This document shows positions 6,952 to 53,962 of a stretch of DNA of 64,000 nt, piece by piece. Below the pieces are notes generated by a model. That model saw nothing but the letters and a program-made list of their open reading frames with translations. It ran no database searches and was not told where the DNA came from. Every line of letters starts with the position of its first letter. The stretch's first letter is position 1. The stretch covers positions 160 to 64,159 of the forward strand of contig CAZOZF010000002.1 of the NCBI GenBank assembly GCA_964584205.1. The letters are read 5' to 3'. Source of the stretch: an uncultured Verrucomicrobiota bacterium. GTDB taxonomy: Bacteria > Verrucomicrobiota > Kiritimatiellia > CAIKKV01 > CAITUY01. The position numbers were made by a program, and so were the translations under genes.

Positions 6952-7019
6952 CAGTGTGGGTTATGAGAAAATAGATGACTGAGGACAAGGTTGGTCTTTC
7001 AGCAAGGGGTGGTGAAGAT

Positions 7020-8723: not shown

Positions 8724-8750
8724 CAGGGATTCGATAGTCCTTCTTCTGGT

Positions 8751-8797
8751 GTGACCCGATTCACCCGAAAAAAGACCTAAACCGCTCTCTTCAGGGG
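8751..8797 (+). promoter_or_regulatory. conserved upstream motif copy A (gtgacccgattcacccgaaaaaagacctaaaccgctctcttcagggg)
   Basis: ~64 bp upstream of the start of the 2427-aa gene. Confidence 0.5.
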
Positions 8798-8861
8798 AAA
8801 TAGGAAGTGGGAGAATATTCAGATGAAGATAAATTGATATTTTTTTTGAGTCAGGGGGGGT

Positions 8862-21354: not shown

Positions 21355-21401
21355 AGGGCTGTCTACCGATTCCTTCAGTTCGGATGAAGGGTAAGGATCT
21401 C

Positions 21402-24400: not shown

Positions 24401-25217
24401 TGCCCAATGCGGGAACCGGTTGCTTAATGATAATCTTGGGATCGGGGTAGAGGTCTATCGCAGTAAGGATCTGGTCAACTGGGCTAAGCCCGTGCCGGTT
24501 TTTGAGCGGCCTACATCGAATTTCTGGGGGGGCAAGGAAGTTTGGGCGCCTGAAGTCCATAAGTTGGGTGACGCCTATTTCATGTTCGTTTCATTTCCCG
24601 GACGACAAGGCGGACGGGGTACACAAATCCTGAAGGCTCAACGACCAGAGGGACCTTTTGTGATTGCGGGTGAAGGGGCGAACACGCCGCCAGAGCAACG
24701 GGCTCTGGATGGCACTCCCTGGGTCGATGCCAATGGTGCGAATTGGCTGGTTTATTGCAATGAGTGGTGTCAGGTCGGGGATGGCACCGTGCGTGCGATA
24801 CGGATGTCTTCGGATTGGATGACCCGACAGGGTGAGTCATATCTGCTTTTCAAGGCCTCTGAAGCGCCATGGGTCGGGCCGTATAGCGATAAGAAATATG
24901 TTACCGATGGTCCGTATTTGTATCGGACCAAGGGCGGAAAAGATGGTAAAGGCAAACTACTTATGATCTGGTCCAGTTTCGGTAAAGGTCGCGATTATGC
25001 GGTGGGGCTGGCCGAGTCACAAAGCGGGAGAGTCGAGGGACCATGGCTCCAGTCATGGGAGCCCCTGTTCCCAAGCAATGGCGGACATGGCATGTGCTTT
25101 CAGGATTTTTCCGGGAATCTCCGGTTGGTGTTGCATCAGCCGAATCAATCCCCCAACGAGCGTGCGAAACTTCTCAAGCTGAAAGAAGTAGAGGGGCGCC
25201 TGGTGGTGGAGAAGTGA
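21402..25217 (+). CDS. secreted tri-modular glycosidase: NPCBM + GH78-like (alpha-L-rhamnosidase-type (alpha/alpha)6) + C-terminal GH43 beta-propeller
   Basis: Start chosen at the Met giving the signal peptide MNQLLNTFWVILFLGLLGYPRVSA (ORF-track start 21351 overlaps the upstream stop). NPCBM: YEHGLGVHAPCVVMFSLDGKVEKFHALIGFSD...GSIEFMMIGDGKVLYRSG. GH78-like: WICYRKNF...WLWINGKLV and MDCPDRERAQWWGDA. GH43: IRVRDPFILADQTTSNYYLYAQ...VWAPEVHKLGDAYFMFVS...DGPYLYRTK. Confidence 0.75.
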   Translation: MNQLLNTFWVILFLGLLGYPRVSAGGETRLEDLPSLNLVENGGGVAKRDRATNDHPLQMCGQKYEHGLGVHAPCVVMFSLDGKVEKFHALIGFSDFPGDRGSIEFMMIGDGKVLYRSGVMKGGLNSKGVMTFAVDKPKIVDVPLAGIKKLRIEVSDTGDNKWGDHVNLVNALFTWEETPPRIVDVEEYVGHAFPPVGNTMGTGGEQVVSVPWTGKWIGPAKADANTWICYRKNFEVGSVPASVPARIAVDSKYWLWINGKLVVREGGLKRGPAPNDGYYDAVELAPYLKRGSNTIAVLAWYFGKQGFSHKSSGKPGFVMEAKIDKASVATDGAWKMRIHPAFGTAGEPLSNYRLPEASILFDATKDIGAWMEPSYDDSGWNVPVTSGSPPVAPWGKLVLRPVPQWKDFGLKAYTNAAAFPAVSDGKVIKAVLPYNAHVTPYFKIEATAGQKIDIRTDDIKGGGEFSVHAEYITRDGVQEFEAPGWMNGHVVEYTIPAGSKILSLLYRETGYNAEFVGSFRCEDPFLNTLWEKSKRTLYVTMRDNYMDCPDRERAQWWGDAVNELGEAFYVFDPPGYQLARKGILELANWQRPDKTMYSPIPAGNWWAELPPQILASVGKYGFWTYYFYTGDAETIREVYPHVRDYLTVWKLDEDSLVIHRKGDWDWSDWGSQIDVRLLDSVWYHLALQGAIEMAKLCGAEGDLPAWQARLKAVEKGINTKLWNGKEYRSPGYKGDTDDRGNGLAVVAGIAGPDKYAALREVLDAHRNASPYMEKYVLESLFMMGEAQLGLDRMRQRYVKMVGSEITTLWEGWDGYGGCNGYNHAWSGGPLTMMSQYVIGVAPDKVAYEQYHVLPQLGDLTTLEGVVPTVKGNIQVSLKRDAASFGLKLLSPNGTRAVVGLPQEKGRRIVSVTLNGKTVWKKGKPGEPVRGMACKGEDERYCRFEVVPGSWSFSALYDGVSSIPVALTAAQLAEYPLKLREIRVRDPFILADQTTSNYYLYAQCGNRLLNDNLGIGVEVYRSKDLVNWAKPVPVFERPTSNFWGGKEVWAPEVHKLGDAYFMFVSFPGRQGGRGTQILKAQRPEGPFVIAGEGANTPPEQRALDGTPWVDANGANWLVYCNEWCQVGDGTVRAIRMSSDWMTRQGESYLLFKASEAPWVGPYSDKKYVTDGPYLYRTKGGKDGKGKLLMIWSSFGKGRDYAVGLAESQSGRVEGPWLQSWEPLFPSNGGHGMCFQDFSGNLRLVLHQPNQSPNERAKLLKLKEVEGRLVVEK

Positions 25218-26880: not shown

Positions 26881-29800
26881 ATGATGATTTCCGTTGCGCG
26901 CATGAAGCCAATATTGGCAATCCTGGGTCTAAGTGTGATGCTGTTTCGTCTTTCCGCGGTAGGGGGCGAAACACGACTGGAAGATCTACCCGATCTCGAG
27001 CTTGTTGAAAATCTCGATAAAACTCCGCTCAAGGATCAGTCGGCCTCATGGACGCCCATACAAATGGGCGGTGAGAAATTTCAACATGGGTTGGGGACTC
27101 ATGCACCGTTTGTCGCCATGATCAGGCTTGACGGGCATACCGGGAAATTTCATGCCGTCGTTGGTGTGAATGGTATGACGAAAGATCGCGGATCGGTGGA
27201 GTTCATCGTGAGTGGTGATGGCAAGGTCCTGTTCCGCAGCGGTGTGATGAAGGGCGATGTGGTGAAGGATGGCAAGGTGACCATCCCTGCCGACCTGCCC
27301 AAGGTGATCGATCTTGATCTGACGGGAGTCAAGCGGCTCAAGCTTGAGGCGACCATCGGCGGCGACAACACCTGGGGCGATGATGCCAACTGGGCTGATG
27401 CGATGTTCACGTGGAAAGGTCAAGCGCCCAGAATCGTCGAAATCGTGGATGATGCCAGCAGTGTTGCCGGTGATGCGCCTCCCGTGGTTAAGTCACCCGA
27501 TGACACGATCTACGTTCCGGAATCCGGGACGAACCGTGTTCCAGGTGCCAAAGTTGATGGGCCGCGGTCTAAAGCAGGGAAGAATGCGGCACCGTCGGCG
27601 CCTGACCGGCTGACTGTCGAAGGCGTGCGTGAGCCGATGGGCATCGATAACCCTGCCCCCGTATTCGGCTGGGTCGCCTCGCATGTGGTTCGTGGGCAGA
27701 AGCAGCGCGGCTATCAGATCCTTGTGGCGTCCAATAGAAAGATCATTGATGCGGATAAGGGGGATGTCTGGTCAATTCAGGAGAAGGAATCGTCACAACA
27801 ATGTGCGATTGCCTATGCCGGGCCTTCCTTGGCGAGCCGGACGCGATATTGGTGGAAGGTACGGGTATGGGATGAGGGCGGCAGTGTTTCGCCCTTCAGC
27901 CAGCCGGCGACGTTTGAGACGGCGATGATGAAGCCGACGGACTGGAAGGCCCAGTGGATCGGCGGTGATTTTACCCGGATGCGCAAGGAGTTCGTAGTGG
28001 ATCCGGTAAAGACGATTGCCCAGGCGCGTGCCTATGTCTCGGGTCAGGGGTATTATGAATTACGGCTTAATGGGAAGAAGGTGGGTGACCATGTCCTGGA
28101 TCCTGGCTATACCGACTACAAATTTCGAGCCCTGTACAGTACCTATGACGTCAAGGAACTGCTTAAGCCCGGCGCCAATGCGCTGGGGGTCATGCTGGGA
28201 GACGCCTATCTGATCAGGTGGGAGCTCAAGCAGCCGTCCGATAAAATGGCGGTCGTGCAGATTGAGGTGAAGTATACCGATAATACCACGGCGACTGTTG
28301 TTACTGATCCGGGTTGGCTGGGAGAGAACCGTGGACCGATGGTCGCGAACAGTGTGTATGTTGGCGAAGTATATGACGCGAGGTTGGAAGATGCCTGGGA
28401 TCTGCCGGGATATTCTGGAACCGGTTGGACAGCAGTCATGGTCAAGACGCCGCCACCGATTGTGAATGCCCAGCTGCAGGCGATCAAGGTGGTTGATACA
28501 CTGAAACCGGTCAAGATGAGCGGGAAGGATGGGGATTACATCTTCGATTTCGGGCAGAATATCGCCGGGTGGCTCAGGATTTCGGCAGCGGCACCGGCTG
28601 GCACTGTCATGAAGATGGATTATGGCGAGGGGGATTGGCCCGCCAGCAGCCAGAAGGATCAGTATACTTTCAAGGGCGGGGGCGTGGAAACTTGGGAGCC
28701 GCGGTTTACTTACCATGGTTTTCGGACCGCTAAGCTTTCCGGAGTGACGGGGCTTACGAGCAATAGCGTGGTTGCCTGTGTGGTGCATAGCGCGGTCGAG
28801 CCCGCCGGTGATTTCACCTGCTCTTCGCCGATGCTCAATAAGATTCACAAGGCCTTTCTTTGGACTCTTGTAAACAATATGCACAGCATCCCCACCGATT
28901 GCTGTCAGCGTGACGAACGTAAGGGTTGGTTGGGCGATGCACTGGTCACGGTGGAAGCGGCGTGCCTGAATCTCGATATGAAGGCGTTCATGGCAAAATG
29001 GTTCCGTGATATCCAGGATTATCAGGATTTCCGGAATACCAATGGGACCGTTGCGAATATTGCGCCCTGTCCCACATTTGAGTTAACCCAACCGGGCCGC
29101 CGCAATTGGGAATCCCAGGATATCCCGTGGAATTCGGCGGCGGTATCCATTCCGTGGGACTTGTACATGGCTACGGGTGACAAGATCCTGTTGGCTAAAC
29201 ATTATGGCATGATGAGGCGCTACGTGGAGTATGTCCGTTCCGTTTCGCCGGAGAATATCTGCCGGTCTAATCGCTGGGGCGACTGGACCGGCGGCCCCAC
29301 TGAGGCGGCTTTGCTGTCGACCGGCTATTACTACCGCTGTGCCGATCTGCTCTCGCGAACTGCTTTGGAACTGGGAAAAACTGAGGATGCCGAAACCTAT
29401 GCGAAGCTGGCGGTGGATATCAAGGCGGCCTTTAACAAGCGATGGCTCAAGTTCGATCGCTATTACAACAAGAACGAACAGGTGGCCAATGCGATGGCGC
29501 TTTCTTTTGATCTGGTGCCAGCCGAGCGCAAGGGGGCCGTGCTGGCCCGCCTGAAACAGGGGATTGAATACAAGGGCGGGCATTTGACCACCGGTGTGGT
29601 GGGGACGCATTGCCTGATGAACGCGCTTTGGCGGAATGAGGCAATCGAGACGGCCTATACCCTCGCTAACCAGAAGACCGCGCCCAGCTGGGGCAACATG
29701 ATTGAAAAAGGTGCCACGACCATATGGGAGTTCTGGGATGGGCACGGCTCCTGGAATCATCCCATGCTCGGTGGCCCTGTTGATGCCTGGTTCTACAAGG

Positions 29801-30162
29801 GGGTATTGGGAATCTATTCGACCAAGCCCGGATATGAGGAGCTGGCGATCCGGCCCCAGATCGGCGGTGGTTTGACATTTGCCAAGGGGTATGTGCAGAC
29901 CCCGCGGGGTAAGGTGGCCTCGGAATGGCAGGCCAATGGCACCTCGGTCACGTTGAATGTAAGCATTCCCTTCAACAGCAAGGCCGCCGTCAGTTTCCCG
30001 AAACCAGCGGCCGGTGTTGTCGCTATTTATGAGGGAAGCACCTTGGTCTGGAAGAATGGTGTCCTGGTGGCAAAAACCGTAGGAATGTACGGCGCGAGTG
30101 AGGACGGGAACTACATCCGGTTTATCGTTGGCTCGGGCGATTATTGTTTTAGACAGATGTGA
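26881..30162 (+). CDS. secreted NPCBM + GH78 alpha-L-rhamnosidase
   Basis: aggag RBS 7 nt upstream; NPCBM (FQHGLGTHAPFVAMIRLDGHTGKFHAVVGVNG...GSVEFIVSGDGKVLFRSG); GH78 N-terminal (PVFGWVASHVVRGQKQRGYQILVAS...RYWWKVRVWDEGG) and catalytic hallmark IPTDCCQRDERKGWLGDA. Confidence 0.88.
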   Translation: MMISVARMKPILAILGLSVMLFRLSAVGGETRLEDLPDLELVENLDKTPLKDQSASWTPIQMGGEKFQHGLGTHAPFVAMIRLDGHTGKFHAVVGVNGMTKDRGSVEFIVSGDGKVLFRSGVMKGDVVKDGKVTIPADLPKVIDLDLTGVKRLKLEATIGGDNTWGDDANWADAMFTWKGQAPRIVEIVDDASSVAGDAPPVVKSPDDTIYVPESGTNRVPGAKVDGPRSKAGKNAAPSAPDRLTVEGVREPMGIDNPAPVFGWVASHVVRGQKQRGYQILVASNRKIIDADKGDVWSIQEKESSQQCAIAYAGPSLASRTRYWWKVRVWDEGGSVSPFSQPATFETAMMKPTDWKAQWIGGDFTRMRKEFVVDPVKTIAQARAYVSGQGYYELRLNGKKVGDHVLDPGYTDYKFRALYSTYDVKELLKPGANALGVMLGDAYLIRWELKQPSDKMAVVQIEVKYTDNTTATVVTDPGWLGENRGPMVANSVYVGEVYDARLEDAWDLPGYSGTGWTAVMVKTPPPIVNAQLQAIKVVDTLKPVKMSGKDGDYIFDFGQNIAGWLRISAAAPAGTVMKMDYGEGDWPASSQKDQYTFKGGGVETWEPRFTYHGFRTAKLSGVTGLTSNSVVACVVHSAVEPAGDFTCSSPMLNKIHKAFLWTLVNNMHSIPTDCCQRDERKGWLGDALVTVEAACLNLDMKAFMAKWFRDIQDYQDFRNTNGTVANIAPCPTFELTQPGRRNWESQDIPWNSAAVSIPWDLYMATGDKILLAKHYGMMRRYVEYVRSVSPENICRSNRWGDWTGGPTEAALLSTGYYYRCADLLSRTALELGKTEDAETYAKLAVDIKAAFNKRWLKFDRYYNKNEQVANAMALSFDLVPAERKGAVLARLKQGIEYKGGHLTTGVVGTHCLMNALWRNEAIETAYTLANQKTAPSWGNMIEKGATTIWEFWDGHGSWNHPMLGGPVDAWFYKGVLGIYSTKPGYEELAIRPQIGGGLTFAKGYVQTPRGKVASEWQANGTSVTLNVSIPFNSKAAVSFPKPAAGVVAIYEGSTLVWKNGVLVAKTVGMYGASEDGNYIRFIVGSGDYCFRQM

Positions 30163-36708: not shown

Positions 36709-38709
36709 ATGAGAAGAATGATCAATCTGGCGCGTGTTGTGACGTGCGCCGTGATTCTTTCGGCGGGAATCTCTGTTGCGGTTGCAAATGAGGTTACGGT
36801 TCAGGAGCTGGCCGTCAAGGATGCGCCTGCAGGAGCGGTTTGGCTCGATGGATTTGATTTGGGTTCCGTGGAGACCGGGTGGGGGAAAGTTGGGGCGGGA
36901 AAATCCGCGGCAGGAAAACCGATTACTGTTGGTAAGAAGGCTTTCGTCCACGGTATTGGAGTTCATGCGCCGAGTGTGGCGGGGATTGATCTCGGGAAGG
37001 CCGCAAGCCGGTTTGTTGCAGTGGTTGGGGTAGATGATGAAACCGGAGTCGGTGGATCAGTCGTTTTTCAGGTCTGGGTTGATCGGGTGAAAAAAGCGGA
37101 TTCCGGCCTGATGAAGGGCGGAGATGCCCCTAAATTGATTTCCGTGGATCTGACGGGGGCGGAAAAGATGGCCCTCGTCGTAACCGATGGCAGAAATGGT
37201 AATGATTCCGATCATGCCGACTGGGCTGGCGCCGCGCTTTACACGCAGAGGAATTCAGTCAAATTCGAGCCGGGGCTCTTCACCATCCCGAACGTCATGC
37301 CTAAAATATCCTCAATTGATCAGTCAAAGACGGCCATCAATGGGCCTCGGATTGTCGGTACGACTCCTGGGCGGCCCTTTGTGTTCCTGGTTCCCGCCAC
37401 CGGCGAAGAACTGAGGGACTATACGGCGAAAAAACTTCCCGCCGGTTTGGTGATCGATCCTGATACCGGCATTATATCAGGTTCCGTCGTGAAGCCCGGT
37501 AGCTATGAGGTCATGCTTTCGGTCGCGGGTCGGAGCGGGGTGGCCACCCGTAAGTTGGTGATTGAGGCGGGTGAGCACAAGCTGGCCAGGACGCCGCCGA
37601 TGGGCTGGAATTCATGGAACTGCTGGGCAGGTGCGATTGATGACGCCAAAGTGCGCGCGGCGGCTGATGCCATGGTCGCCAGTGGCCTGGCTGCCCATGG
37701 TTATCAATACATCAATATTGATGACTGCTGGCAGAAAGGACGTGATGCCAATGGGGAAATTGTGCCGAATGCAAAATTTCCAGACATGAAAGCACTGGCC
37801 GATTACGTGCACAGCAAGGGTTTACGGCTGGGGATCTATTCGTCGCCTGGCCCGCAGACCTGTGCCGGTTTCGAGGGTAGTTACCGGCACGAGGAGCAGG
37901 ATGCGAAGACCTACGCGACGTGGGGTATGGATTACCTCAAGCATGACTGGTGCTCTTACGGTTCGGTGGTGACGGCTAAGGTCTACCAGCTCGAGGATTA
38001 CGCGAAACCTTTCAGGATCATGGGCGAGGCGCTCGATGCCTGCGGGCGTGACATCGTTTACAGTCTTTGTCAGTACGGTATGGGTAACGTCTGGGAATGG
38101 GGCGCGGACGTTGGAGGGAATTGCTGGCGTACGACCTATGATATCACCGATATGTGGGAAAGCATGTCCCGCATCGGATTCGGCCAGAATGGGCACGAAA
38201 AGTATGCCGGGCCAGGCCGCTGGAACGATCCGGATATGCTTGTCGTGGGCAGGGTGGGTTGGGGACCGAACCTGCATCCGACCCGGCTCAAATATGTGGA
38301 ACAGGTTACGCATCTAACTCTATGGAGCCTCCTGTCTGCTCCCCTCCTGATCGGGTGTGACATGACGACGATGGATAAATTCACGTTGGACTTGCTCACC
38401 AATGATGAGGTTCTCGACGTTAATCAGGATCCGCTGGGTAAGCCGGCGGGCCGGGTGGCTGAAAATAATGGCATCCAGGTGTGGAGCCGGCCGCTTCAAG
38501 ATGGCGCTGTGGCGGTGGGTATTTTCAACACCGGAATGGAGGACCTTGACGGGATTGTTAAGTGGTCTGATATCGGCGTCCAAGGCAAGCAGACTGTGCG
38601 TGATCTCTGGTTAAAGCAGGATCTGGGTGTCTTTGACGGACAGTACGCAGTCAAGGTGCCTGCGCATGGCGCGTTCATGTTCAAGATCGGAGCGCCACGC
38701 AGGGACTAG
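36709..38709 (+). CDS. secreted NPCBM + GH27 alpha-galactosidase
   Basis: gagagga RBS; NPCBM (FVHGIGVHAPSVAGIDL...FVAVVGVDDETGVGGSVVFQVWVDR); GH27 catalytic motifs GWNSWNCW, INIDDCWQ, LRLGIYSSPGPQTCAG, LKHDWC. Confidence 0.9.
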   Translation: MRRMINLARVVTCAVILSAGISVAVANEVTVQELAVKDAPAGAVWLDGFDLGSVETGWGKVGAGKSAAGKPITVGKKAFVHGIGVHAPSVAGIDLGKAASRFVAVVGVDDETGVGGSVVFQVWVDRVKKADSGLMKGGDAPKLISVDLTGAEKMALVVTDGRNGNDSDHADWAGAALYTQRNSVKFEPGLFTIPNVMPKISSIDQSKTAINGPRIVGTTPGRPFVFLVPATGEELRDYTAKKLPAGLVIDPDTGIISGSVVKPGSYEVMLSVAGRSGVATRKLVIEAGEHKLARTPPMGWNSWNCWAGAIDDAKVRAAADAMVASGLAAHGYQYINIDDCWQKGRDANGEIVPNAKFPDMKALADYVHSKGLRLGIYSSPGPQTCAGFEGSYRHEEQDAKTYATWGMDYLKHDWCSYGSVVTAKVYQLEDYAKPFRIMGEALDACGRDIVYSLCQYGMGNVWEWGADVGGNCWRTTYDITDMWESMSRIGFGQNGHEKYAGPGRWNDPDMLVVGRVGWGPNLHPTRLKYVEQVTHLTLWSLLSAPLLIGCDMTTMDKFTLDLLTNDEVLDVNQDPLGKPAGRVAENNGIQVWSRPLQDGAVAVGIFNTGMEDLDGIVKWSDIGVQGKQTVRDLWLKQDLGVFDGQYAVKVPAHGAFMFKIGAPRRD

Positions 38710-40989: not shown

Positions 40990-43900
40990 GTGATGTCTAC
41001 TGGAAATTCGAGCCTGTCGGGTGTGATTGCGCTGTCGGTATTGTTTCTGCTGGCTGTTCATGGTGATGTCCGTGCGGAAAAGGTTGAGCACTGGAAGCAT
41101 ATTAATGTTGAAGACGAGTTGTGGACGAATGCCGGCGGAGCGGGAGACGGTCTTCTGGGTTTTGGCGAATTCATGATTTATTCCGGAGCTACCTTTGACC
41201 AGACGGGGGGGCGAATTGGCAGTGTTACTAATTGGGGTGCCCCGGTCGCTTCCATTGGTTGGAGCACCGGTGGTTCATACAAGATGTCGGGTTTGGCTAT
41301 ATTTACAACGGCTACGGATGTAGTACTTGGTCATGCCAAGAGTGGGGGCCAGGTTGCGGGCTGGAGTTTAACCGACATCGCCAGCGCTACGCTGGGGGGT
41401 GCCCTGGATTTCCGTGACGGTGCCGCGAATCACCTTCTTCTTGGCGGGGCGGCCACTTTTCGCGCGGGAAGCCTTCGCGGGTTGGATCGCGACGGTGAAT
41501 ACATCAGCTTTGCCTGTGGCGCTACAGCCTCCCAGGCCACGCTTACGATTGGATCCCGGGATCAGTCCTACTATGAGGATTTGGTTTCCAAAGGGTACAT
41601 CCGCATCAATCGAGTGAAGCAAACCAACTTCAGCAAGTTTCAAGTCAAAGGCAGTACGTTGTCGCTGGTCCCGCTGTCCATGAGGCTGGCGATTACCTCC
41701 GTTAATGGCGGATCTAGCCCCAGTGCTGGCGACGGCTTTGATGTGACCGTTCAGGTTCTGGATCTGAATAATGCTCCGGCCAAAGTCGGTGCGGATAGGG
41801 TGGTGACGCTCATGCGTAAGGCCGGTAGCGGCATTTTGGATGGGACAACCAATATTACCATCGCGGCAGGCTCCCATACGAAAAAAATCAGCGGAGTGAC
41901 CTACACCAAGGCGGAAAATGGCGTGGTGCTCACCGCCTTGTGTGACGGAGTGGGGGATGGCGACAGCCCAACCTTCACGGTCGCGGCGGGGACTCCCAGA
42001 AAGCTGGTGTTCTGCGCCCAGCCGGAGGCGACAGTGCTGGGGTGGCCGATCAGTCCGGTCGTGACGGTTCAGATTCAGGATGCCAATGGCAATACCGTGG
42101 TCGGCGAGTCCCGCCGCGTGACGATCAGTAGCTCTACAACCGCTTTCTCCGGCGACAGTATCCTCGCCACGAATGCCGTCGAGGGTGTGGCGAATTTTAG
42201 CGCGCTCAAGCCAGTCCGGATCGCCAGTTCTAACATGCTGGTGGCCAGCGTGGGTTCGCTGGCGGGGGCGACCTCCCGCACCTTCGCCGTCTCTTCGGAT
42301 TGTGTGGCTCATGCCTCGCCGGAAAAGTGCGCACAGTTCAACGCCTTTAAGGAGATCCCCATCAACTCCATTACCCCCAAGGGGTGGTTGCGTGAATTTC
42401 TGGTTCGGCAAAATACAGGACTCACGGGAAACCGTGAAATATTGTCCTACCCGTTCAACACCTGTCTTTGGGCCGGCCGCATCCCGTACAACGGGAACGG
42501 CGACGACTGGTGGCGCTACGAACAAACCGCTTACCTGACCGACGGGATGCTCCGGCTCGGCTATCTCATCCGCGATGACAAGCTCATGCAGGCCGGGCGT
42601 GACGGCGTGGCGTATGTGCTCGCGCATCCTATGGAAAAAGGCCGCCTCGGCCACCCCTTTTTCACCAGCCAGTGGCCGATGGCCGTTTTTTTTCGTGCCA
42701 TGCAGGCCGAATACTCAGCCACCACTGATCCCAAGCTCCTGGAGGCGCTTCGCCAGCACTACCTTTCCTTTTCAACCGCGGAGTTGCGCGGGGGGCGGAA
42801 TGTCATCAACGTTGAGGGCATGCTTTGGACATACGGCAAGACCGGTGATCGCAAGCTTCTTAATCGCGCGAATGCGATCTACGATCAAGGGCAGGGTATA
42901 TGGGGCAGAGGTGCTCTGGGCGCGCCAGGAAAGGATGTTGAGCATGGAGTCACCTACAATGAAATGGCGAAACTGCCGGCGATCTTCTATGCCTACACCG
43001 GCAACAAGGACTATCTGTCCGCCTCAGTCAACGCCTTCAGGAAGCTGGATCGTGATCACATGCTGCCCGATGGAGTTCCCAGTTCCAACGAATTCCTGGC
43101 GGGAAAGGATATTCACCAGAGCCACGAAACCTGTGACATTTCGGATTATACATGGAGCGTCGGCTACCTCTTGATGGCCACCGGCGACGCTGCCTGGGCA
43201 GATCACATCGAAAAGGCCATTTTCAATGCCGGGCCCGGTTGCGTTTCCAAGGATTTCAAGAACCTCCAATATTTTTCTGGCGTTAACCAGGTCATCGCGA
43301 CGGGCGACTCTAATCACAACAAACATTTCCATGGTTCCACCTGGATGGCCTACCGTCCTTGTCATGAGACGGAATGTTGTGCTGGCAATGTGCACCGTTT
43401 CATGCCCAACTACGCTGCCCGCATGTGGATGAGCGATACCAATGGCGGGCTTGTGGCGACACTTTATGGACCGTCGTCAATGACGCTGCCGATCAATCAA
43501 GGGCGACAACAGCTGACCGTCACAGAAAACACGGGCTATCCTTTTTCCGAAACCATTACCTTCACGTTCAACACACCGACTCCTGTCGAGATGCCATTTT
43601 CGTTCCGCATTCCCGGGTGGTGTGTAGCCCCGTCGGTTATAGTCAACCAGCGGCCCTATTCGGGTCAGCTCACCCCTGGCGCCTTCACCACCCTGAGCCG
43701 GACCTTCCGGAATGGCGATATCGTCACGTTGCGCCTGCCCATGCCTTTGAAACTAATTAAGTGGGAAAACCAAGGGGTTGCCGTTGAGCGCGGTCCTCTG
43801 CTTTTTGCCTATCCGGTGCCCGAGAAGGTGACGGAGGATACCCGGACTTATGCCAATATGCGCGGTAAGAAATCGTCTGACCCGGTCAATTTCCCGGCCC

Positions 43901-44193
43901 TTGATATTAGGCCTGATGGGCCATGGAATTACGCGCTCGCGGCAAATTCCGCCGCTGACCTCAAGTTGGTGACGAATGAATCCAATGGTTATCCGTTCGA
44001 TCCTGGCGCCAGTCCTCTGGTCATCAAGGTGCCTGCCAGGAAGGTCAAGGGGTGGAGCTTGGTTGAGGACCGTTACACGCCGCCGTTGCCGGACCGTGAC
44101 AAGGTTGAGTGCGAGGCGGCTGTGGAAACCATTACCCTCGTCCCGTATGGTAGTACGCGATTGCGAATTGGGGTTTTTCCTGTGGCACGGTGA
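40990..44193 (+). CDS. secreted GH127-like (DUF1680, beta-L-arabinofuranosidase-type) enzyme with N-terminal Ig-like domains
   Basis: Signal peptide; Big/invasin-like Ig domain (PEATVLGWPISPVVTVQIQDANGNTVVGESRRVTISS); DUF1680 core with the Glu-Thr-Cys (HQSHETCD) and Cys-Cys (HETECCAGN) motifs corresponding to the HypBA1 Zn/nucleophile site. Confidence 0.75.
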   Translation: MMSTGNSSLSGVIALSVLFLLAVHGDVRAEKVEHWKHINVEDELWTNAGGAGDGLLGFGEFMIYSGATFDQTGGRIGSVTNWGAPVASIGWSTGGSYKMSGLAIFTTATDVVLGHAKSGGQVAGWSLTDIASATLGGALDFRDGAANHLLLGGAATFRAGSLRGLDRDGEYISFACGATASQATLTIGSRDQSYYEDLVSKGYIRINRVKQTNFSKFQVKGSTLSLVPLSMRLAITSVNGGSSPSAGDGFDVTVQVLDLNNAPAKVGADRVVTLMRKAGSGILDGTTNITIAAGSHTKKISGVTYTKAENGVVLTALCDGVGDGDSPTFTVAAGTPRKLVFCAQPEATVLGWPISPVVTVQIQDANGNTVVGESRRVTISSSTTAFSGDSILATNAVEGVANFSALKPVRIASSNMLVASVGSLAGATSRTFAVSSDCVAHASPEKCAQFNAFKEIPINSITPKGWLREFLVRQNTGLTGNREILSYPFNTCLWAGRIPYNGNGDDWWRYEQTAYLTDGMLRLGYLIRDDKLMQAGRDGVAYVLAHPMEKGRLGHPFFTSQWPMAVFFRAMQAEYSATTDPKLLEALRQHYLSFSTAELRGGRNVINVEGMLWTYGKTGDRKLLNRANAIYDQGQGIWGRGALGAPGKDVEHGVTYNEMAKLPAIFYAYTGNKDYLSASVNAFRKLDRDHMLPDGVPSSNEFLAGKDIHQSHETCDISDYTWSVGYLLMATGDAAWADHIEKAIFNAGPGCVSKDFKNLQYFSGVNQVIATGDSNHNKHFHGSTWMAYRPCHETECCAGNVHRFMPNYAARMWMSDTNGGLVATLYGPSSMTLPINQGRQQLTVTENTGYPFSETITFTFNTPTPVEMPFSFRIPGWCVAPSVIVNQRPYSGQLTPGAFTTLSRTFRNGDIVTLRLPMPLKLIKWENQGVAVERGPLLFAYPVPEKVTEDTRTYANMRGKKSSDPVNFPALDIRPDGPWNYALAANSAADLKLVTNESNGYPFDPGASPLVIKVPARKVKGWSLVEDRYTPPLPDRDKVECEAAVETITLVPYGSTRLRIGVFPVAR

Positions 44194-47259: not shown

Positions 47260-47345
47260 ATCCCGTTTGTGGGAGATTGACCGTCACAAAGAAGCTGATG
47301 AGTGATGGGGTTGAATCGCATTCAAACCTAGCGGAGGAAAGTTCC

Positions 47346-48386
47346 ATGAACCGTATGAAAGCCTTGGTAAAGCGCAACGCCACTCCAGGTCTTTGGCTGG
47401 AGGATGTGCCCTTTCCTGAGGTTGGGATTAATGATGTCCTGATCAAGGTATTCCGGACTGGGATTTGTGGCACTGATTTGCATATATACAACTGGGATGC
47501 ATGGGCTCAGAAAACCATCCCGGTTCCCCTCGTGATTGGTCATGAATTTGTCGGGACGATTGTGGAGGTCGGGGCGAACGTGAAGGATTTTCATTCTGGC
47601 GATATTGTCAGCGGGGAAGGACATGTTGTTTGTGGGCGATGCCGGAACTGCCTGGCCGGACGTCGTCACCTGTGCAAGGATACCCAGGGCGTGGGGGTTA
47701 ACCGGACTGGGGCGTTTGCGGAGTATCTGGCGTTACCCGTAACCAATGTGTGGGGACATGCGCCGGGGCTCGATCGTGATATCCAGTCCATTTTCGATCC
47801 CTTTGGGAACGCTGTTCATACCGCCCTTAAATTTGAATCGCTGGGGGAAGACGTCCTCATCACTGGAGCCGGGCCCATCGGAATCATGGCGGCGGCTGTG
47901 GCCAAGCATGCCGGGGCCCGGTATGTTGTCATTACGGATACCAATCCCTACCGACTCGATCTGGCCCGGAAAATGGGGGTGACGTTGGCGGTCGATCCGA
48001 CCCGGGAGAGTCTGCCAGAGGTTCAGAAGAAGCTCGGCATGAAGGAAGGGTTTGATATCGGATTGGAAATGAGCGGGAATCCTGGCGCCTTTCGTGATAT
48101 GCTGGCCAACATGGCACACGGGGGCAAGATTGCGATGCTGGGTATCCCTCCGGAATCGGGCACCATGGACTGGAATAAGGTCATTTTCAATATGTTGACG
48201 ATCAGTGGGATCTACGGGCGGGAGATGTATGAGACCTGGTACAAGATGACAGCGCTTTTGCAGTCCGGACTGGATATTAGCCAGATTGTGACCCATCGAT
48301 TCCACTATACGGACTTCCAGAAAGGGTTTGATGCGATGCTTTCAGGGAACTGCGGGAAAGTGGTGCTGACCTGGTGTGAGGGGTGA
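47346..48386 (+). CDS. tdh: L-threonine 3-dehydrogenase
   Basis: Colinear similarity to E. coli Tdh along the full length ([58 protein letters not shown]...[21 protein letters not shown]...[25 protein letters not shown]); ggagg RBS ~9 nt before this Met (ORF-track start 47277 is too far upstream). Confidence 0.93.
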
Positions 48387-48389
48387 TAT

Positions 48390-49577
48390 ATGCTTACTCA
48401 TTCCTTCAAGTTGCAATTGAGCGGGACGATGGAAGAGATACGCGGCGCGGGCCTTCTTAAGAACGAGCGGATCATCGCGTCCCCGCAACGCCCCAGACTC
48501 AGTACCTCTGTCCGGGCTGAGGTGCTCAATATGTGTGCCAATAACTATCTCGGGTTGGCCTCCCATTCCGAGGTGATTGCCGCAGCCCATGCCGCTCTCG
48601 ATCAATGGGGCTATGGTATGGCCAGTGTCAGGTTTATTTGTGGCACCCAGCCATTGCATAAGCAGTTGGAGCAGGCCTTAAGTGATTTTCTCGGAATGGA
48701 GGAAACCCTTCTGTATTCCTCCTGTTTCGATGCGAACGGTGGGTTGTTTGAAACCCTGCTTGGCGAGCCGGACGCCGTTATTTCTGACGAACTCAACCAT
48801 GCCTCGATCATCGATGGGATCCGCTTGTGCAAAGCCAGGCGTTACCGCTACCTGAACAACGATATGGCCGACCTTGAGGCCCGGCTCCGGGAGGCTCTGG
48901 ATGCGCGTCATCGCTTGATCGCCACCGATGGGGTTTTCTCGATGGATGGCACGTTGGCCAACCTGCCGGCAATCTGTGATCTGGCTGAACGTTATGATGC
49001 GATGGTTATGGTTGACGATTCCCATGCCGTTGGCTTCATGGGTGCCCATGGCCGGGGAACGCACGAACATCATGGGGTGATGGGGCGGGTGGACATTATT
49101 ACCGGCACGCTCGGAAAGGCGTTGGGTGGCGGCTGCGGTGGGTATACCAGCGCCCGTGCCGGCATAGTTCAGTTGCTTCGTCAAAGGTCACGCCCTTACC
49201 TTTTTTCCAATTCCCTGCCACCCCCGGTCGTCGGGGCTTCTCTGAAAGTCATGTCGATGTTGGTTCATTCGGCCGAACTGCGTGACCGGTTGGAGTCCAA
49301 TGCCCGCTTTCTCCGTGAGGGCCTTGCCCGGGCCGGATTCACACTGGTTTCCGGCGTTCATCCGATTATTCCGATTATGTTGGGCGATGCCGCCCTGGCA
49401 ACGCGTATGGCAGACCGGCTCCTTGAGAAGGGCGTCTATGTGATTGGTTTCTCTTATCCGGTGGTGCCCGTTGGAAAGGCTCGTATCCGCGTGCAGGTTT
49501 CGGCCGCCCATACGCGTGCCGATCTGGAGTTCGCGCTTCAGATGTTTACCGAAGTGAAGCAAGAGTTCGGTGTTTAG
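48390..49577 (+). CDS. kbl: 2-amino-3-ketobutyrate CoA ligase (glycine C-acetyltransferase), PLP-dependent
   Basis: Kbl/AONS-family signature ([46 protein letters not shown]...[15 protein letters not shown]; FSMDG lysine region); immediately downstream of tdh. Confidence 0.93.
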
Positions 49578-49591
49578 GAGTAACAGCCCGA

Positions 49592-51823
49592 TTGAAAATG
49601 GTTTTGCTAGCAGGGATGTGCGCGTGTGTTGGCGTGGGTGGTGTTTCTGGCTCGAGCCAGGCGATTCCGTTTCCGGAGGCGTTGCAGGATGCCGCGATGT
49701 CGGTTGCCAAAATGACGGACGGGCAAAGCGAAGGACTGATTGTCGGCAACGGCGACCTGTACGGGGTGGTCTGGGAGAAACAAGGCGGGCTTTTCCTGCG
49801 GATCACCCGCAATGAGATCTGGGACGCGCGGCTTGATACTTCAAAAGATGGTCCTATTTCCCGGGTGAATGTCCGATCCCGGGCGGTGACTGGTACGACG
49901 GGCGCTCCGCCAAGTTATGGCTCTCCTTATCCCCAGCCACGGTGTGCGGCCGCTATCCGAATCGGGGGTGCGGCGCCGGCGCTCGCTAAAGGGGATGTGG
50001 ATTTGCGGCGGGCGGTCATGACGGTGACGTCCGGCAACAGCAAATGTACCGAGATCCGGGCCCTGGCCGACCGGAATGTAATGCTTATCAATACGGCAGG
50101 CAAGGTGGCGATAGAGGAGATCCTTTCCGGAACCCTGCCCCGGGCCAAGGCCGGAACCACCGACGGTGTCGCCTGGCTGCATATGGTGATGCCCGGGGAT
50201 GTCGACTATAAGGGGATGGAATACAGTGTCGCGGTGGCAGGTGATGGGCGGATGAAAACCGTTTCACTTGTCACATCATTTGACGTAGCTACAGGGGATG
50301 TGTGCCGTGCCGCGATTGCCTTGGCCACCAAGACGCTCGACGAGGTGAACAAGAGCCCGGACGCGTTGATCGCGAAGCATGAGGGGGTTTGGGTTGATTA
50401 CTGGGCCCGCAGCGGTATTGCGCTGGCGGATCGGGACTTTCAGCGTTGGTGGTACCGGATGTTGTATTTTGCGCGGACCATCTGTCAGCCCGGTGGCCGG
50501 TTCCCGCCGGGCCTGATGCCACCTCTGGTAACGGATAACACACCTTGGCATGCGGATTTCCACTTCAATTACAACTCATGGCAGCCGTTCTGGTCGGTTG
50601 TTTCGGCGAATCATGCTGACCTTGCGGATTCGTGGCTTACCTACGTTGATGGATTGTTGCCGCGGGCGCAGTGGCAGGCCAGGGAAATCTATGGCTGTGA
50701 CGGGGTCTTCTATTCGATTTCCCAGTATCTGCACGAACCGGATCCGGCCATCTGTAAGAGTGTCAACAAGCGGGCCGGACCGATGAATCCGTGGGGAATG
50801 ACCATCGGTATGGTGGGAATGACGGCCCAGAGTCTGTGGCACCGGCACCTGTGCGATCCGGATCGCGCCATCCTGGAAAAGAAGATCTACCCGACGTTGA
50901 GGGAAGCGGCGCGGTTTTATGTTTCCTTCATGAAGCAATGCGGCAGGGATGCGGATGGGAAAGTCTTGCTGGGGCCATCGTACAGTCCTGAGCATGGTAA
51001 TATGGGTATCGACAATTGTCCCTTTGATATTGCCTATGTTCATTACACGTTTGAGGCCTTTTGCAAAGCCGCCCGTGAGCTGGGTAAGGATCCGGCGCTG
51101 GTGGCAGAGTGCCAGGACATGAAGACGCTTCTTTCCGAATACCCTGTGGCGTTGGATGCCCAAGGACAACCGGTTGTCGTGGACTGGCGAGGCTGTAAGT
51201 ACAAAGAAGTCCCCATTCATAATCTGACCGTTCCGGCGGCGCCTGTGTTTCCCGGCGAGCAGGTGACCTGGTTCTCTCCGGAGCCGGTCAAGGAGTTGTT
51301 TCGCCGCACCATTCGTGACACCCGGTTCAATGGCAATAATTCACACGTCATATTTAATATTGCCAAGGCCCGTTTATCCATGCCTGAAGCGTTATCTGAT
51401 GCCCGGCAATGGTTTAAAAGCCGGGAGCTGCACAATGGTCTGTTCGTTTGGCAGGGACATGAGCATGGGACTTTTATGACGGAAAGCATCGGGGTTACGG
51501 CGCTGGTAACCGAATTCCTGATGCAGAGTGTGGGGGATATCATTCGGGTCTTTCCTTGTTGGCCGAAAGACCAGCCCGCTTCGTTCCGCCAATTGCGGGC
51601 GCAGGGCGGCTTCCTTGTGTCTTCCAGTCAGCAGGCGGGCAAGGTGGTTATTCTGGAAATCACCTCGACCGTCGGCGGGCGATTGCGGGTGTTGAGTCCG
51701 TGGCCGACGCTTATGGTAAAGTGCGGCCTTGATGGGGCGAAGCTCATGAACCCTGATGCTCAAGGTGTCGTGACGCTGAGTACGCAGCCCGGCGAGCACG
51801 TGGTGTTTGGACCGGCGGAGTGA
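49592..51823 (+). CDS. secreted GH95-like (alpha/alpha)6-barrel glycosidase, divergent from canonical GH95 (paralog 1 of 2)
   Basis: Signal peptide; N-terminal LIVGNGDLYGVVW...RNEIWDARL and the block WHADFHFNYNSWQPFW echo GH95 motifs (GNGRLGAMVFGG; DYHxNINxQMNYW) at low identity; tandem paralog follows. Confidence 0.6.
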   Translation: MKMVLLAGMCACVGVGGVSGSSQAIPFPEALQDAAMSVAKMTDGQSEGLIVGNGDLYGVVWEKQGGLFLRITRNEIWDARLDTSKDGPISRVNVRSRAVTGTTGAPPSYGSPYPQPRCAAAIRIGGAAPALAKGDVDLRRAVMTVTSGNSKCTEIRALADRNVMLINTAGKVAIEEILSGTLPRAKAGTTDGVAWLHMVMPGDVDYKGMEYSVAVAGDGRMKTVSLVTSFDVATGDVCRAAIALATKTLDEVNKSPDALIAKHEGVWVDYWARSGIALADRDFQRWWYRMLYFARTICQPGGRFPPGLMPPLVTDNTPWHADFHFNYNSWQPFWSVVSANHADLADSWLTYVDGLLPRAQWQAREIYGCDGVFYSISQYLHEPDPAICKSVNKRAGPMNPWGMTIGMVGMTAQSLWHRHLCDPDRAILEKKIYPTLREAARFYVSFMKQCGRDADGKVLLGPSYSPEHGNMGIDNCPFDIAYVHYTFEAFCKAARELGKDPALVAECQDMKTLLSEYPVALDAQGQPVVVDWRGCKYKEVPIHNLTVPAAPVFPGEQVTWFSPEPVKELFRRTIRDTRFNGNNSHVIFNIAKARLSMPEALSDARQWFKSRELHNGLFVWQGHEHGTFMTESIGVTALVTEFLMQSVGDIIRVFPCWPKDQPASFRQLRAQGGFLVSSSQQAGKVVILEITSTVGGRLRVLSPWPTLMVKCGLDGAKLMNPDAQGVVTLSTQPGEHVVFGPAE

Positions 51824-51847
51824 TGTAGTCGGAAATTGGAGGTTAGC

Positions 51848-53962
51848 ATGAGGAAACTGGGCATTGGGGCCGTTCTAATAAGTGCCGTTCTGTCGGCGCA
51901 GGGTATGAACTACAGCGGGGTTTTTACCGAGCCGCCGAAAAGTGTTCCAACCTACTACATGCCTGATGGGCCCCTGCTGGGGAACGGCGATGTCGGTGTC
52001 GTGCTGGCAGGTCCACCGGAAGAGCAGCGTTTTTACATCGGCAAGAATGACTGGTGGGGGTATGGCGATGGCTCACGCGCGATGCCGGCCGGCGGATTGA
52101 CGCTTGCGATAACCGAGTTGAAAGGCGCGAGCTACCGGCAGGAACAGGATTTGGCTTTGGCGGAAGTCCGAGGCTCGTTCACCAATGGCGAGGTGGTGGT
52201 GCAGACACGGTCGTTTGTTGATGCCGAGTCCAACCTGCTGATAACGGAAGTGAAGTGCGCCGGGACAAAGCCGGTGACGGCCGTTTTTTCACAGAGAAAC
52301 GGTTTAGATGATCCCTGGGGAACCCGACGGACAAGTATTCCATCCGGCATCCTGTGTTGTACACGGGTGAGCGGGGATGCTCCTCCTGAAAAGAGGATGG
52401 AGATAGGGGTCGTGAGCCGCATCATCGGTGGAGCGCTGGTCGTGGACAGCGCAGGCACAATAACGTTGACCCTCAAAGCAGGCGAAGTCGTAACGATTGT
52501 AACGTGTGTGCTCTCCAAACTGGACGATCCTGGTTTTCTTGAGTCGGCAAAAAAGAAAGTGTCAGCATTGGAGATAAAGGACTTTCGGTCCATTTCAATC
52601 AAGCACAGGGAGTGGTGGAAGAATTTCTGGTCAAAATCGTTTATAGAGATTCCCGATAAGGAGATTGAGAAGCGCTGGTACGCAGCCTTGTATGTGATGG
52701 GGTCTTGTAGCAAGGCGGGGAAGGTCGCGCCCGGGTTGTGGGGGTGCTGGGTCACCATTTTTGCCCAATGGCAGGGCGATTATCACTTGAATTATAATTT
52801 TCAGGCGCCGTATTACATCGTCTATTCCAGTAACCATGCCGATTTGTCAGCCCCCTATTATCGGGCGATCCTGGAGTCGGTGCCTCGAGCCAGAGAGGTG
52901 GCAAGGAAGAACGGGTGGAAAGGCGTGCACTTTCCAGTATGTATTGGTCCCCGGGGTATTTTTCCGGAGGGGGAAAGGGATCATGGACAGCGTTCGAATG
53001 CCGCGTATGTGGCCTTGAATTTCATCTGGCAGTACCAGTATACGAAGGATAAGGAATTCCTGAAGACGACGGCCTATCCGTATCTGCTGGAAGTGGCGGC
53101 ATTCTGGGAGGATTACCTCAAGCTGGAAAACAAACGGTATGTGATCTACAAGGATGCCATCCATGAGGGGTCAGGCGATAACATAAACCCGATTCTCTCG
53201 CTGGGGCTTGTCAGGACACTTTTCACGAGCCTGATATCCATGAGCAAGGATATCGGTGTGGATGAGGCCCGGCGTGCGAAGTGGCAGGACATCCTGGACA
53301 AGCTCAGCGCATTCCCGTTACAGGAGCGCAATGGGAAAACCGTGTTCCGTTATACGGAGAAGGGGTTGGATTGGTGGAAAGACAACACTCTGGGTATCCA
53401 GCATATCTTTCCGTGTGGCACCATCGGCCTGGACAGCGATCCAAAGCTGCTGGAAATCTGCCATAACACAATTGACGAGATGGGGCGTTGGGCTGATTAC
53501 AACGGCTTTTCATCGTGGTATACCGCCTGTGCCCGTATCGGGTACGATCCCAAAACGATCCTGACGAAAATGCGTACGGAGTGTGATAAGCATTCCTTTC
53601 CGAATCTCCTGCTATTTTATGGTGGTGGCGGAATAGAGAGTTGTGGTGGCTTTCTGGCGATCAACGAGATGTTATTGCAGAGCCATGAGGGTGTGCTCCG
53701 CTTTTTCCCTTGCTGGCCCAGGGATCAGGATGCCCGCTTTGGGACGCTGCGCGCTGTGGGTGCCTTCCTTGTCAGCGCCGAGCTGAAGAATGGCGTGGTC
53801 GGCGGCGTGAAGATCATCAGTGAGAAGGGGGCCGATTGTACCGTGCAGAACCCCTGGCCCGGCAAGAAGGTGACCATCTCCGGCCGGAAGCCGCTTGAGG
53901 GCGCGCGGTTCACGTTCAAAACCAAGCCGGGCGAAATCATGGAATTGCGGCCGCAAACATGA
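51848..53962 (+). CDS. secreted GH95-like (alpha/alpha)6-barrel glycosidase (paralog 2 of 2)
   Basis: ggagg RBS 5 nt before the ATG at 51848 (the ORF track began at an upstream TTG, 51836); signal peptide MRKLGIGAVLISAVLSAQG; LLGNGDVGVVL...KNDWWGYGDG, WQGDYHLNYNFQAPYY; colinear with 49592..51823. Confidence 0.6.
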   Translation: MRKLGIGAVLISAVLSAQGMNYSGVFTEPPKSVPTYYMPDGPLLGNGDVGVVLAGPPEEQRFYIGKNDWWGYGDGSRAMPAGGLTLAITELKGASYRQEQDLALAEVRGSFTNGEVVVQTRSFVDAESNLLITEVKCAGTKPVTAVFSQRNGLDDPWGTRRTSIPSGILCCTRVSGDAPPEKRMEIGVVSRIIGGALVVDSAGTITLTLKAGEVVTIVTCVLSKLDDPGFLESAKKKVSALEIKDFRSISIKHREWWKNFWSKSFIEIPDKEIEKRWYAALYVMGSCSKAGKVAPGLWGCWVTIFAQWQGDYHLNYNFQAPYYIVYSSNHADLSAPYYRAILESVPRAREVARKNGWKGVHFPVCIGPRGIFPEGERDHGQRSNAAYVALNFIWQYQYTKDKEFLKTTAYPYLLEVAAFWEDYLKLENKRYVIYKDAIHEGSGDNINPILSLGLVRTLFTSLISMSKDIGVDEARRAKWQDILDKLSAFPLQERNGKTVFRYTEKGLDWWKDNTLGIQHIFPCGTIGLDSDPKLLEICHNTIDEMGRWADYNGFSSWYTACARIGYDPKTILTKMRTECDKHSFPNLLLFYGGGGIESCGGFLAINEMLLQSHEGVLRFFPCWPRDQDARFGTLRAVGAFLVSAELKNGVVGGVKIISEKGADCTVQNPWPGKKVTISGRKPLEGARFTFKTKPGEIMELRPQT

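Follow-up and report, generated by a model that had tools for sequence, protein, structure and literature searches.

Gene pair and locus

The DNA analysed here, called the window throughout, is a stretch of 64,000 nucleotides from an uncultured Verrucomicrobiota bacterium of the Kiritimatiellia (assembly GCA_964584205.1, contig CAZOZF010000002.1, positions 160 to 64,159 of the forward strand). It contains two adjacent open reading frames (ORFs) in head-to-tail orientation, ORF-A (49598-51823, +; 741 amino acids (aa) from ATG) and ORF-B (51848-53962, +; 704 aa from ATG), which are predicted to encode secreted glycosidases resembling glycoside hydrolase family 95 (GH95). Genes and products are referred to as A and B. 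The ORF lister had selected TTG starts, giving 49592-51823 (743 aa) for A and 51836-53962 (708 aa) for B. An AGGAG lies upstream of the ATG at 49598 and GGAGG is found 5 nucleotides before the ATG at 51848; these two ATG codons match the database gene calls (identical proteins P0001 with 741 aa and P0121 with 704 aa) and are most likely the true starts. Residue numbers refer to the 743-aa frame for A and the 708-aa frame for B. Residues 1-20 of A are hydrophobic, have a low predicted local distance difference test (pLDDT) value in the structural model and are read as a putative signal peptide. For both proteins, the hydrophobic N-termini of low model confidence suggest secretion.

An earlier note, made from the DNA letters and a list of ORFs, had described the locus as a tandem pair of strongly diverged GH95-like paralogs of ~700 aa. 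Two adjacent genes of this size are indeed present on the same strand, and the motifs it quoted were recovered from the translations where it had placed them. The canonical GH95 gene which it had located upstream at 16316 could be confirmed as well. This alpha-L-fucosidase gene (16316-18949, +; ORF from 16238) belongs to the same gene string, carries DYHANINVQMNYW, reaches 469 bits over the whole Pfam model PF22124 (GH95_cat) and matches FucOB of Akkermansia (7ZNZ) with an E value of 8e-194. It was used as comparator and is a probable pathway partner of A and B.

Sequence similarity and predicted fold

A and B are homologous to each other (BLASTP: E 7e-39, 27% identity over ~490 residues; hhalign: E 6e-49, 28% identity) and to the GH95 enzyme of the window (BLASTP: E 3e-23 for A and 6e-24 for B, 23-26% identity; profile comparison: 2e-29 for A and 8e-39 for B). 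These resemblances are far beyond chance, and the large distance from the canonical enzyme that had been claimed in the earlier note is borne out by the same identities. PF22124 matches A with 96.8 bits (E 1.8e-27, model positions 85-373 of 408) and B with 94.1 bits (E 1.2e-26, positions 59-347) at a gathering score of 27, which corresponds to ~70% of the model and one fifth of the score of the window GH95. The GH95 C-terminal domain match is just under the Pfam threshold. For B, weaker Pfam matches to GH65m (41.9 bits), DUF5703_N, GH95_C and Glyco_hyd_65N_2 were also obtained; GH65m, DUF5703_N and Glyco_hyd_65N_2 represent glycoside hydrolase families of the same fold. DUF5703_N scores 15.3 bits in A and 27.4 bits over 24 residues in B, compared with 195 bits in a true GH139 neighbour gene. 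The NCBIfam models are uninformative here: the canonical GH95 itself obtains only a weak kojibiose-hydrolase match, and the lack of a match is meaningless. Sequence searches of the PDB gave GH95 as best match (E ~1e-17), followed at a marginal level by GH139 (E 0.003 to 6e-7) and GH65.

Structures were predicted with AlphaFold2 using family alignments (A: pLDDT 87.5, predicted template modelling score 0.90; B: 86.9 and 0.89). Both models show an N-terminal beta-sandwich, a helical linker, an (alpha/alpha)6 barrel and a C-terminal beta-sandwich, which is the three-domain architecture of GH95. In Foldseek, the best matches of both proteins are GH95 structures, aligned over the full length. For A, the values are E 5e-34 and a template modelling (TM) score of ~0.74 for GH95, E ~1e-23 and TM 0.63-0.65 for GH139, and E ~1e-19 for GH65. 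For B, they are E 4e-39 and TM 0.78-0.83 for GH95, E ~1e-29 for GH139 and E ~7e-29 for GH65.

Catalytic and pocket residues

The catalytic residues of FucOB (AfcA numbering in brackets) are N385 (N421), N387 (N423), E541 (E566) and D699 (D766), and the pocket is formed by W378 (W414), H383 (H419), H613 (H678), W655 (W722) and H693 (H760) (PMC10063614, PMC12282258). Positions were transferred from FucOB to the window GH95 and further to A and B using an L-INS-i alignment of 98 sequences and hhalign.

The N-terminal domain of A contains the GNG motif common to GH95 in the form GNGDLYGVVW (49745-49774, +), and its G52 and N53 do not vary among A, B and GH95 (alignment A1). The corresponding motif of B is GNGDVGVVL (51980-52006, +) with invariant G49 and N50 (alignment A2). 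The segment DFHFNYNSWQPFW of A (50555-50593, +) holds H324 (FucOB H383), N326 (N385) and N328 (N387, the proposed base), with W319 (W378) just upstream. In B, DYHLNYNFQAPYY (52778-52816, +) holds H317, N319 and N321 at the same positions, again with a tryptophan, W312, just upstream. The columns of the Asn pair are invariant across A, B and GH95. As predicted general acid, E467 of A (FucOB E541, AfcA E566) is found in SPEHG (50984-50998, +), a motif identical in the window GH95. Both MAFFT and hhalign align this motif to IHEGS of B (53159-53173, +), where E444 is the predicted acid and H443 and E444 are invariant in the B family. Thus, the Asn pair and the general acid of GH95 are present in both proteins.

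The remainder of the canonical pocket is altered. R612/H613 of FucOB correspond to Asn544/Leu545 in A and to Asp516/Asn517 (or a deletion) in B, and the stacking W655 is deleted or replaced by His585 in A and replaced by Phe558 in B. In A, the segment H625-GTFMT-E631 (51464-51484, +) retains H625, aligned with H693; the position of D699 is taken by Thr630, followed by Glu631 at position +1 (hhalign and MAFFT). In B, H693 is lost in a GGGGIES loop (53621-53641, +), and Ile600 precedes Glu601 at the +1 position; G596-G599 and E601 are invariant in the B family. By these alignments, the Asp activator (AfcA D766, FucOB D699), which GH95 has in an H-P-P-x-Q-x-D-G-N motif, is replaced in A and B. 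Of the five -1 subsite residues, which vary little or not at all among the seven canonical GH95 sequences that were compared, A keeps three (W319, H324 and H625) and B two (W312 and H317). In 120 homologues of each protein, conservation of the retained residues and of Glu631/Glu601 is 97% or higher, and the two glutamates may stand in for Asp699, as the alignments suggest.

The H383 position (H419/T370) has been proposed to separate fucosidases (His) from L-galactosidases (Thr, as in BACOVA_03438) (PMC10063614). Both A and B have His here, the residue of the fucosidase type.

Comparison with related families

The closest family to A and B is GH95, followed by GH139 and GH65. With the alpha-L-fucosidases and alpha-L-galactosidases of GH95, such as AfcA of Bifidobacterium bifidum (2EAB), FucOB of A. 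muciniphila (7ZNZ) and BACOVA_03438 of Bacteroides ovatus (4UFC), they share the three-domain fold, the D-x-H-x-N-x-N motif, the Glu acid, Trp and His at the C6 side of the -1 sugar, the GNG motif in the N-terminal domain and an EMLxQS motif closing the barrel. By homology, an inverting mechanism is expected. Unlike GH95, they have Arg612/His613, Trp655 and Asp699 replaced, B has lost His693, and identity to canonical members is 19-26%. The earlier note had held that a strong full-length match to a well-characterised family would make both enzymes ordinary; the Pfam match to GH95 is partial, with ~95 versus 469 bits. Judged by the alignments, A and B would fall outside GH95 on two defining residue features (the Asp activator and the -1 subsite His/Trp) and weakly inside it on the sequence model.

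GH139, represented by the 2-O-methyl-alpha-L-fucosidase BT0984 (9HYQ; Pfam DUF5703), shares the overall fold. It has been described as GH95-like without the conserved canonical Asp766 and its flanking His residues (PMC12282258), and in the non-conservation of these positions A and B resemble GH139; in several loci, GH139 genes adjoin A- or B-like genes. They differ from GH139 in having Asn-x-Asn instead of Gln411-Asn412 (PMC12282258), in the marginal sequence similarity and in a structural similarity lower than that to GH95. The combination of a DUF5703 N-terminal domain with the Gln411-Asn412 / Asp723 signature (PMC12282258) was not found in A or B.

Compared with GH65 (alpha-1,2-glucosidase of F. 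johnsoniae, 7FE3; kojibiose phosphorylase, 3WIQ), A and B possess the Asn pair in place of the GH65 catalytic and phosphate-binding residues, appear to be secreted and lie among genes directed at fucose and rhamnose. For both, GH95 structures rank above those of GH65.

Size and distribution of the clade

Among the scored candidates, 402 database homologues were assigned to A and 1244 to B, with 55-85% identity among the matches listed. Named homologues of A are all 'hypothetical protein', and those of B are mostly 'hypothetical protein' or 'alpha-L-fucosidase 2'. An exhaustive HMMER search with A in 1.84 billion 50%-identity representatives yielded 4301 matches at E ≤ 1e-3, 1742 at E ≤ 1e-10 and 250 at E ≤ 1e-30. 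All full-length sequences (≥ 600 aa) among the best 150 representatives give a better score with A or with B than with canonical GH95, for which they reach 0-147 bits; their scores to GH139 are 0-36 bits.

Average-linkage clustering of 98 sequences at 30% identity gave an A-like cluster (36 sequences), a B-like cluster (17), five further non-canonical clusters and the canonical GH95 (7). The latter is 19-23% identical to all other groups and is the one group in which R612, H613, W655 and D699-Gly are invariant, while Glu at D699+1 is common to most non-canonical groups. Cluster 5 (P0338, P0343, P0354, P0361, P0371, P0372, P0374 and P0389) retains His613 and, in part, both Trp655 and Asp699; it seems to stand between the canonical GH95 and the clades of A/B type, and a family tree could usefully be rooted with it.

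In GTDB species genomes, homologues of A occur in Verrucomicrobiota, Lentisphaerae/Victivallales, Kiritimatiellia, Planctomycetota, Hydrogenedentes and Bacteroidota, and for A as well as for B, hundreds of uncharacterised homologues with 55-85% identity are known from metagenome-assembled genomes (MAGs) of Verrucomicrobiota, Planctomycetota, Kiritimatiellia, Lentisphaerae and Bacteroidota. The nearest GTDB locus shows 81% identity. All 78 A-homologue loci are from metagenome assemblies (77 titled MAG), and many isolate names point to lakes. In the literature on DUF5703, GH95-like enzymes and GH95-related families, no paper describing the A/B clade was found, nor was a paper citing PDB 8ZBV found in the literature.

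Pairing and gene neighbourhoods

The gene order of the window, including A-B, is kept in a relative with 84% identity (locus L003). Seven of the 78 A loci seemed at first to hold a B-like gene near A, which would have indicated a conserved A-B module; with more seed families, a true B-family gene remained at one distant locus only (L016, 946 bits). Outside close relatives such as L003, the A-B pairing is not a conserved module, and the tandem pair of the earlier note does not hold up as a local duplication. Its term 'paralogs' is apt for the deep homology at 27-28% identity and misleading for recent duplicates: since A and B each have 55-85% identical orthologues in other phyla, a recent tandem duplication is excluded, and the pair is an assembled operon neighbourhood of two old paralogues.

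Neighbours were counted at 78 genome loci of A and 76 metagenome loci of B; all counts are minimum values owing to the limited seed set. Sulfatase genes were found near A at 14 loci, directly adjacent in nine, and near B at three. For the enzyme families shared by both neighbourhoods, the numbers of loci (A and B, respectively) are 10 and 11 for GH29, 9 and 8 for GH78, 8 and 2 for GH106, 7 and 12 for GH2, 6 and 8 for GH95, 6 and 3 for GH139, and 4 and 9 for SASA esterases. GH27 (5/76) and GH110-like genes (4/76) occur near B and were not seen at the 78 A loci. Pairs of A-like genes in tandem, and likewise of B-like genes, are frequent across loci. One homologue of A (P0066) is fused to a sulfatase, and homologues of B are fused to Laminin_G_3, GH36 or esterase domains.

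Genes of the URO-D family lie near A at 9/78 and near B at 5/76 loci, several of the latter with direct adjacency. Examples are 3486-4568 (-) in the window, 8333-10004 in L011, 7511-8545 in L040, and genes in L094 and L096. They are weakly similar to MtaA/CmuA methyltransferases (87 bits versus a cutoff of 235), and their recurrence may indicate that O-methylated sugars are processed. Another recurrent feature is a hydrazine-synthase-alpha middle domain (PF18582) in large proteins encoded near A-like genes at 4/78 and near B-like genes at 3/76 loci (L018 2456-4714, L113, L157 and others).

The gene string of the window

According to Pfam scans, A and B are part of a glycan-degrading gene string of ~43 kb on the forward strand (16238-59266). 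Its order is GH95, NPCBM+GH110-like, NPCBM+GH78+GH43, SASA esterase, NPCBM+GH78, GH36-like, DUF3472/PA14, GH27+NPCBM, GH36, GH127-like, GH2, tdh, kbl, A, B, GH2-like+F5/8C and GDSL esterase. The gaps flanking A and B measure 14-25 nucleotides, and promoter and terminator scans around both genes gave fewer sites than shuffled sequence. We infer that the string is co-transcribed.

Directly upstream of A (47277-49577, +), genes for L-threonine 3-dehydrogenase (tdh; NF003808, 579 bits) and glycine C-acetyltransferase (kbl; NF005394, 633 bits) are located. The order tdh-kbl-A also occurs in L003 and L040, and tdh is found near the A homologue of L054. Their presence within a glycan string invites the guess that Thr-rich glycoproteins serve as substrates. 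Four enzymes of the string carry an N-terminal NPCBM module (all +): the GH110-like protein (18973-21354), the GH78+GH43 protein (21351-25217), the second GH78 protein (26881-30162) and the GH27 protein (36709-38709). Four such modules in one locus are an unusual concentration. The GH127-like protein (40990-44193, +; 1067 aa) has rhamnogalacturonan II aceric acid hydrolase as best NCBIfam match with 89 bits, far under the cutoff, and GH127 models match its C-terminal half only.

Upstream of the string, AraC/XylR-type regulators and giant PATR-repeat proteins are encoded. Two PATR-repeat proteins (6975-16145, +), one of them with 2427 aa and Invasin_D3/Big_1 repeats, lie between the regulators and the string and may be surface adhesins or glycan-capture proteins. 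An ORF of 715 aa without Pfam match (1342-3489, -) shares 4 nucleotides with the end of the URO-D gene. It was considered as a third GH95-like paralogue and rejected; structure matches are weakly alpha-galactosidase-like (E 0.002-0.02), and it may be a divergent GH27/GH36-like enzyme.

Proposed function of A and B

In our view, A and B are, with a probability of roughly three in four, catalytically competent, secreted inverting exo-glycosidases which act in the periplasm or at the cell surface and represent two ancient, conserved subfamilies of an uncharacterised clade sister to canonical GH95. By homology, Glu467 (A) or Glu444 (B) would protonate the glycosidic oxygen, and C1 would be attacked by water bound to the pair Asn326/Asn328 (A) or Asn319/Asn321 (B), the Asn being polarised by Glu631 (A) or Glu601 (B) in place of the canonical Asp. 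Conservation of the Trp and His contacting C6 argues for an L-fucose-type (6-deoxy-L-galacto) sugar in the -1 subsite, and the absence of Arg612/His613 and of the stacking residue Trp655 speaks for a different binding mode of this sugar. It may carry a methyl, sulfate or acetyl substituent or be in a linkage which canonical GH95 cannot take; probably, the substrate is a modified or differently presented L-fucose-type residue. The altered specificity suggested in the earlier note fits the replacement of otherwise invariant pocket residues, while the activities it named, alpha-L-galactosidase and methyl-fucosidase, are guesses which the data do not establish. Together with the GH95, GH78, GH27, GH36, GH110-like, GH2 and GH127-like enzymes and the esterases of the string, A and B would strip side chains off a complex heteroglycan containing fucose, rhamnose and galactose.

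Several observations weigh against this interpretation. No biochemically characterised member of either subfamily was found in the literature. Pfam and KEGG-style annotation already put B in GH95, and the 'sister clade' may be read as deep GH95 subfamilies. The placement of Glu631/Glu601 and of the Trp655 replacements comes from sequence alignment, in which the Asp699 and Trp655 loops are shifted by 1-2 residues depending on the method (BLAST, phmmer, MAFFT or hhalign). Neighbourhoods are heterogeneous, most neighbours are unlabelled and no single substrate emerges. In the window, no sulfatase is present among ORFs of at least 250 aa.

A further-reaching proposal places A and B together with the five other non-canonical clusters in a group of family rank, comparable to GH139 and amounting to one or more new CAZy families, in which the GH95 mechanism has been adapted to a terminal sugar removed by no known fucosidase family. 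The signature of such a group would be Glu at +1 in place of the Asp activator, together with the loss of Arg-His and of the stacking Trp. We regard this proposal as possible but less likely than not. If true, candidate sugars would be L-fucose with O-methyl, sulfate or acetyl groups, or a different 6-deoxy-L-hexose, in heteroglycans of algae, cyanobacteria or plants, and such a specificity would explain the recurrent adjacency to sulfatases, GH139 and MtaA/CmuA-like methyltransferase-family genes.

Alternatively, both proteins could be ordinary GH95 alpha-L-fucosidases with alpha-1,2 or relaxed linkage preference which have merely diverged in sequence, so that the locus would hold three redundant fucosidases. 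The GH95 catalytic Pfam domain above the gathering score, the JGI annotation of B as 'alpha-L-fucosidase 2', the conserved Asn pair, Glu acid and fucose-C6 His and Trp, and the frequent GH29 and GH95 fucosidases in the neighbourhood are consistent with this. The canonical GH95 in the same string argues against simple redundancy, and we consider this alternative the less likely one, though a serious rival.

That A and B are non-catalytic, regulatory or carbohydrate-binding relatives appears highly improbable. Part of the canonical pocket is lost, and there is a precedent in the GH139 homologue SDT91673.1, which is without the catalytic acid, is inactive and has a solved structure; a glycan-binding role was suggested for it (PMC12282258). 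However, the acid Glu, both Asn and the adjacent Glu show a conservation of 97% or more in the A and B families, the genes are embedded in enzyme strings, and homologues are fused to sulfatase, GH36 or esterase domains. A role as GH65-like glycoside phosphorylases or alpha-glucoside hydrolases has a very low probability: the GH65m match was obtained for B only and sits beneath the stronger GH95_cat match, GH95 matches are consistently stronger, the GH95-specific D-x-H-x-N-x-N motif is invariant, both proteins have signal-like N-terminal sequences (phosphorylases are normally cytoplasmic), and the neighbours are fucosidases and rhamnosidases, not alpha-glucan genes.

Significance

Carbon turnover has a bottleneck in the degradation, by Verrucomicrobiota, Planctomycetota and Kiritimatiellia, of polysaccharides which are rich in fucose and rhamnose and often sulfated or methylated, and the known exo-fucosidase families (GH29, GH95, GH139, GH141 and GH151) do not, to our knowledge, cover every linkage. 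The analysis of A and B marks out a large clade with GH95 chemistry and a remodelled pocket, comprising ~250 clusters of 50% identity at E ≤ 1e-30 and thousands of metagenomic sequences. In automatic annotation, the proteins of this clade are called 'hypothetical protein' or 'alpha-L-fucosidase', the latter being probably too specific. A and B are good candidates for a new specificity, which is an incremental advance and not a new type of enzyme or system. Biochemical work on a single member of each subfamily could yield a new specificity and perhaps a further CAZy family; it would also make predictions of glycan use from carbohydrate-active enzymes in freshwater and sediment metagenomes more reliable.

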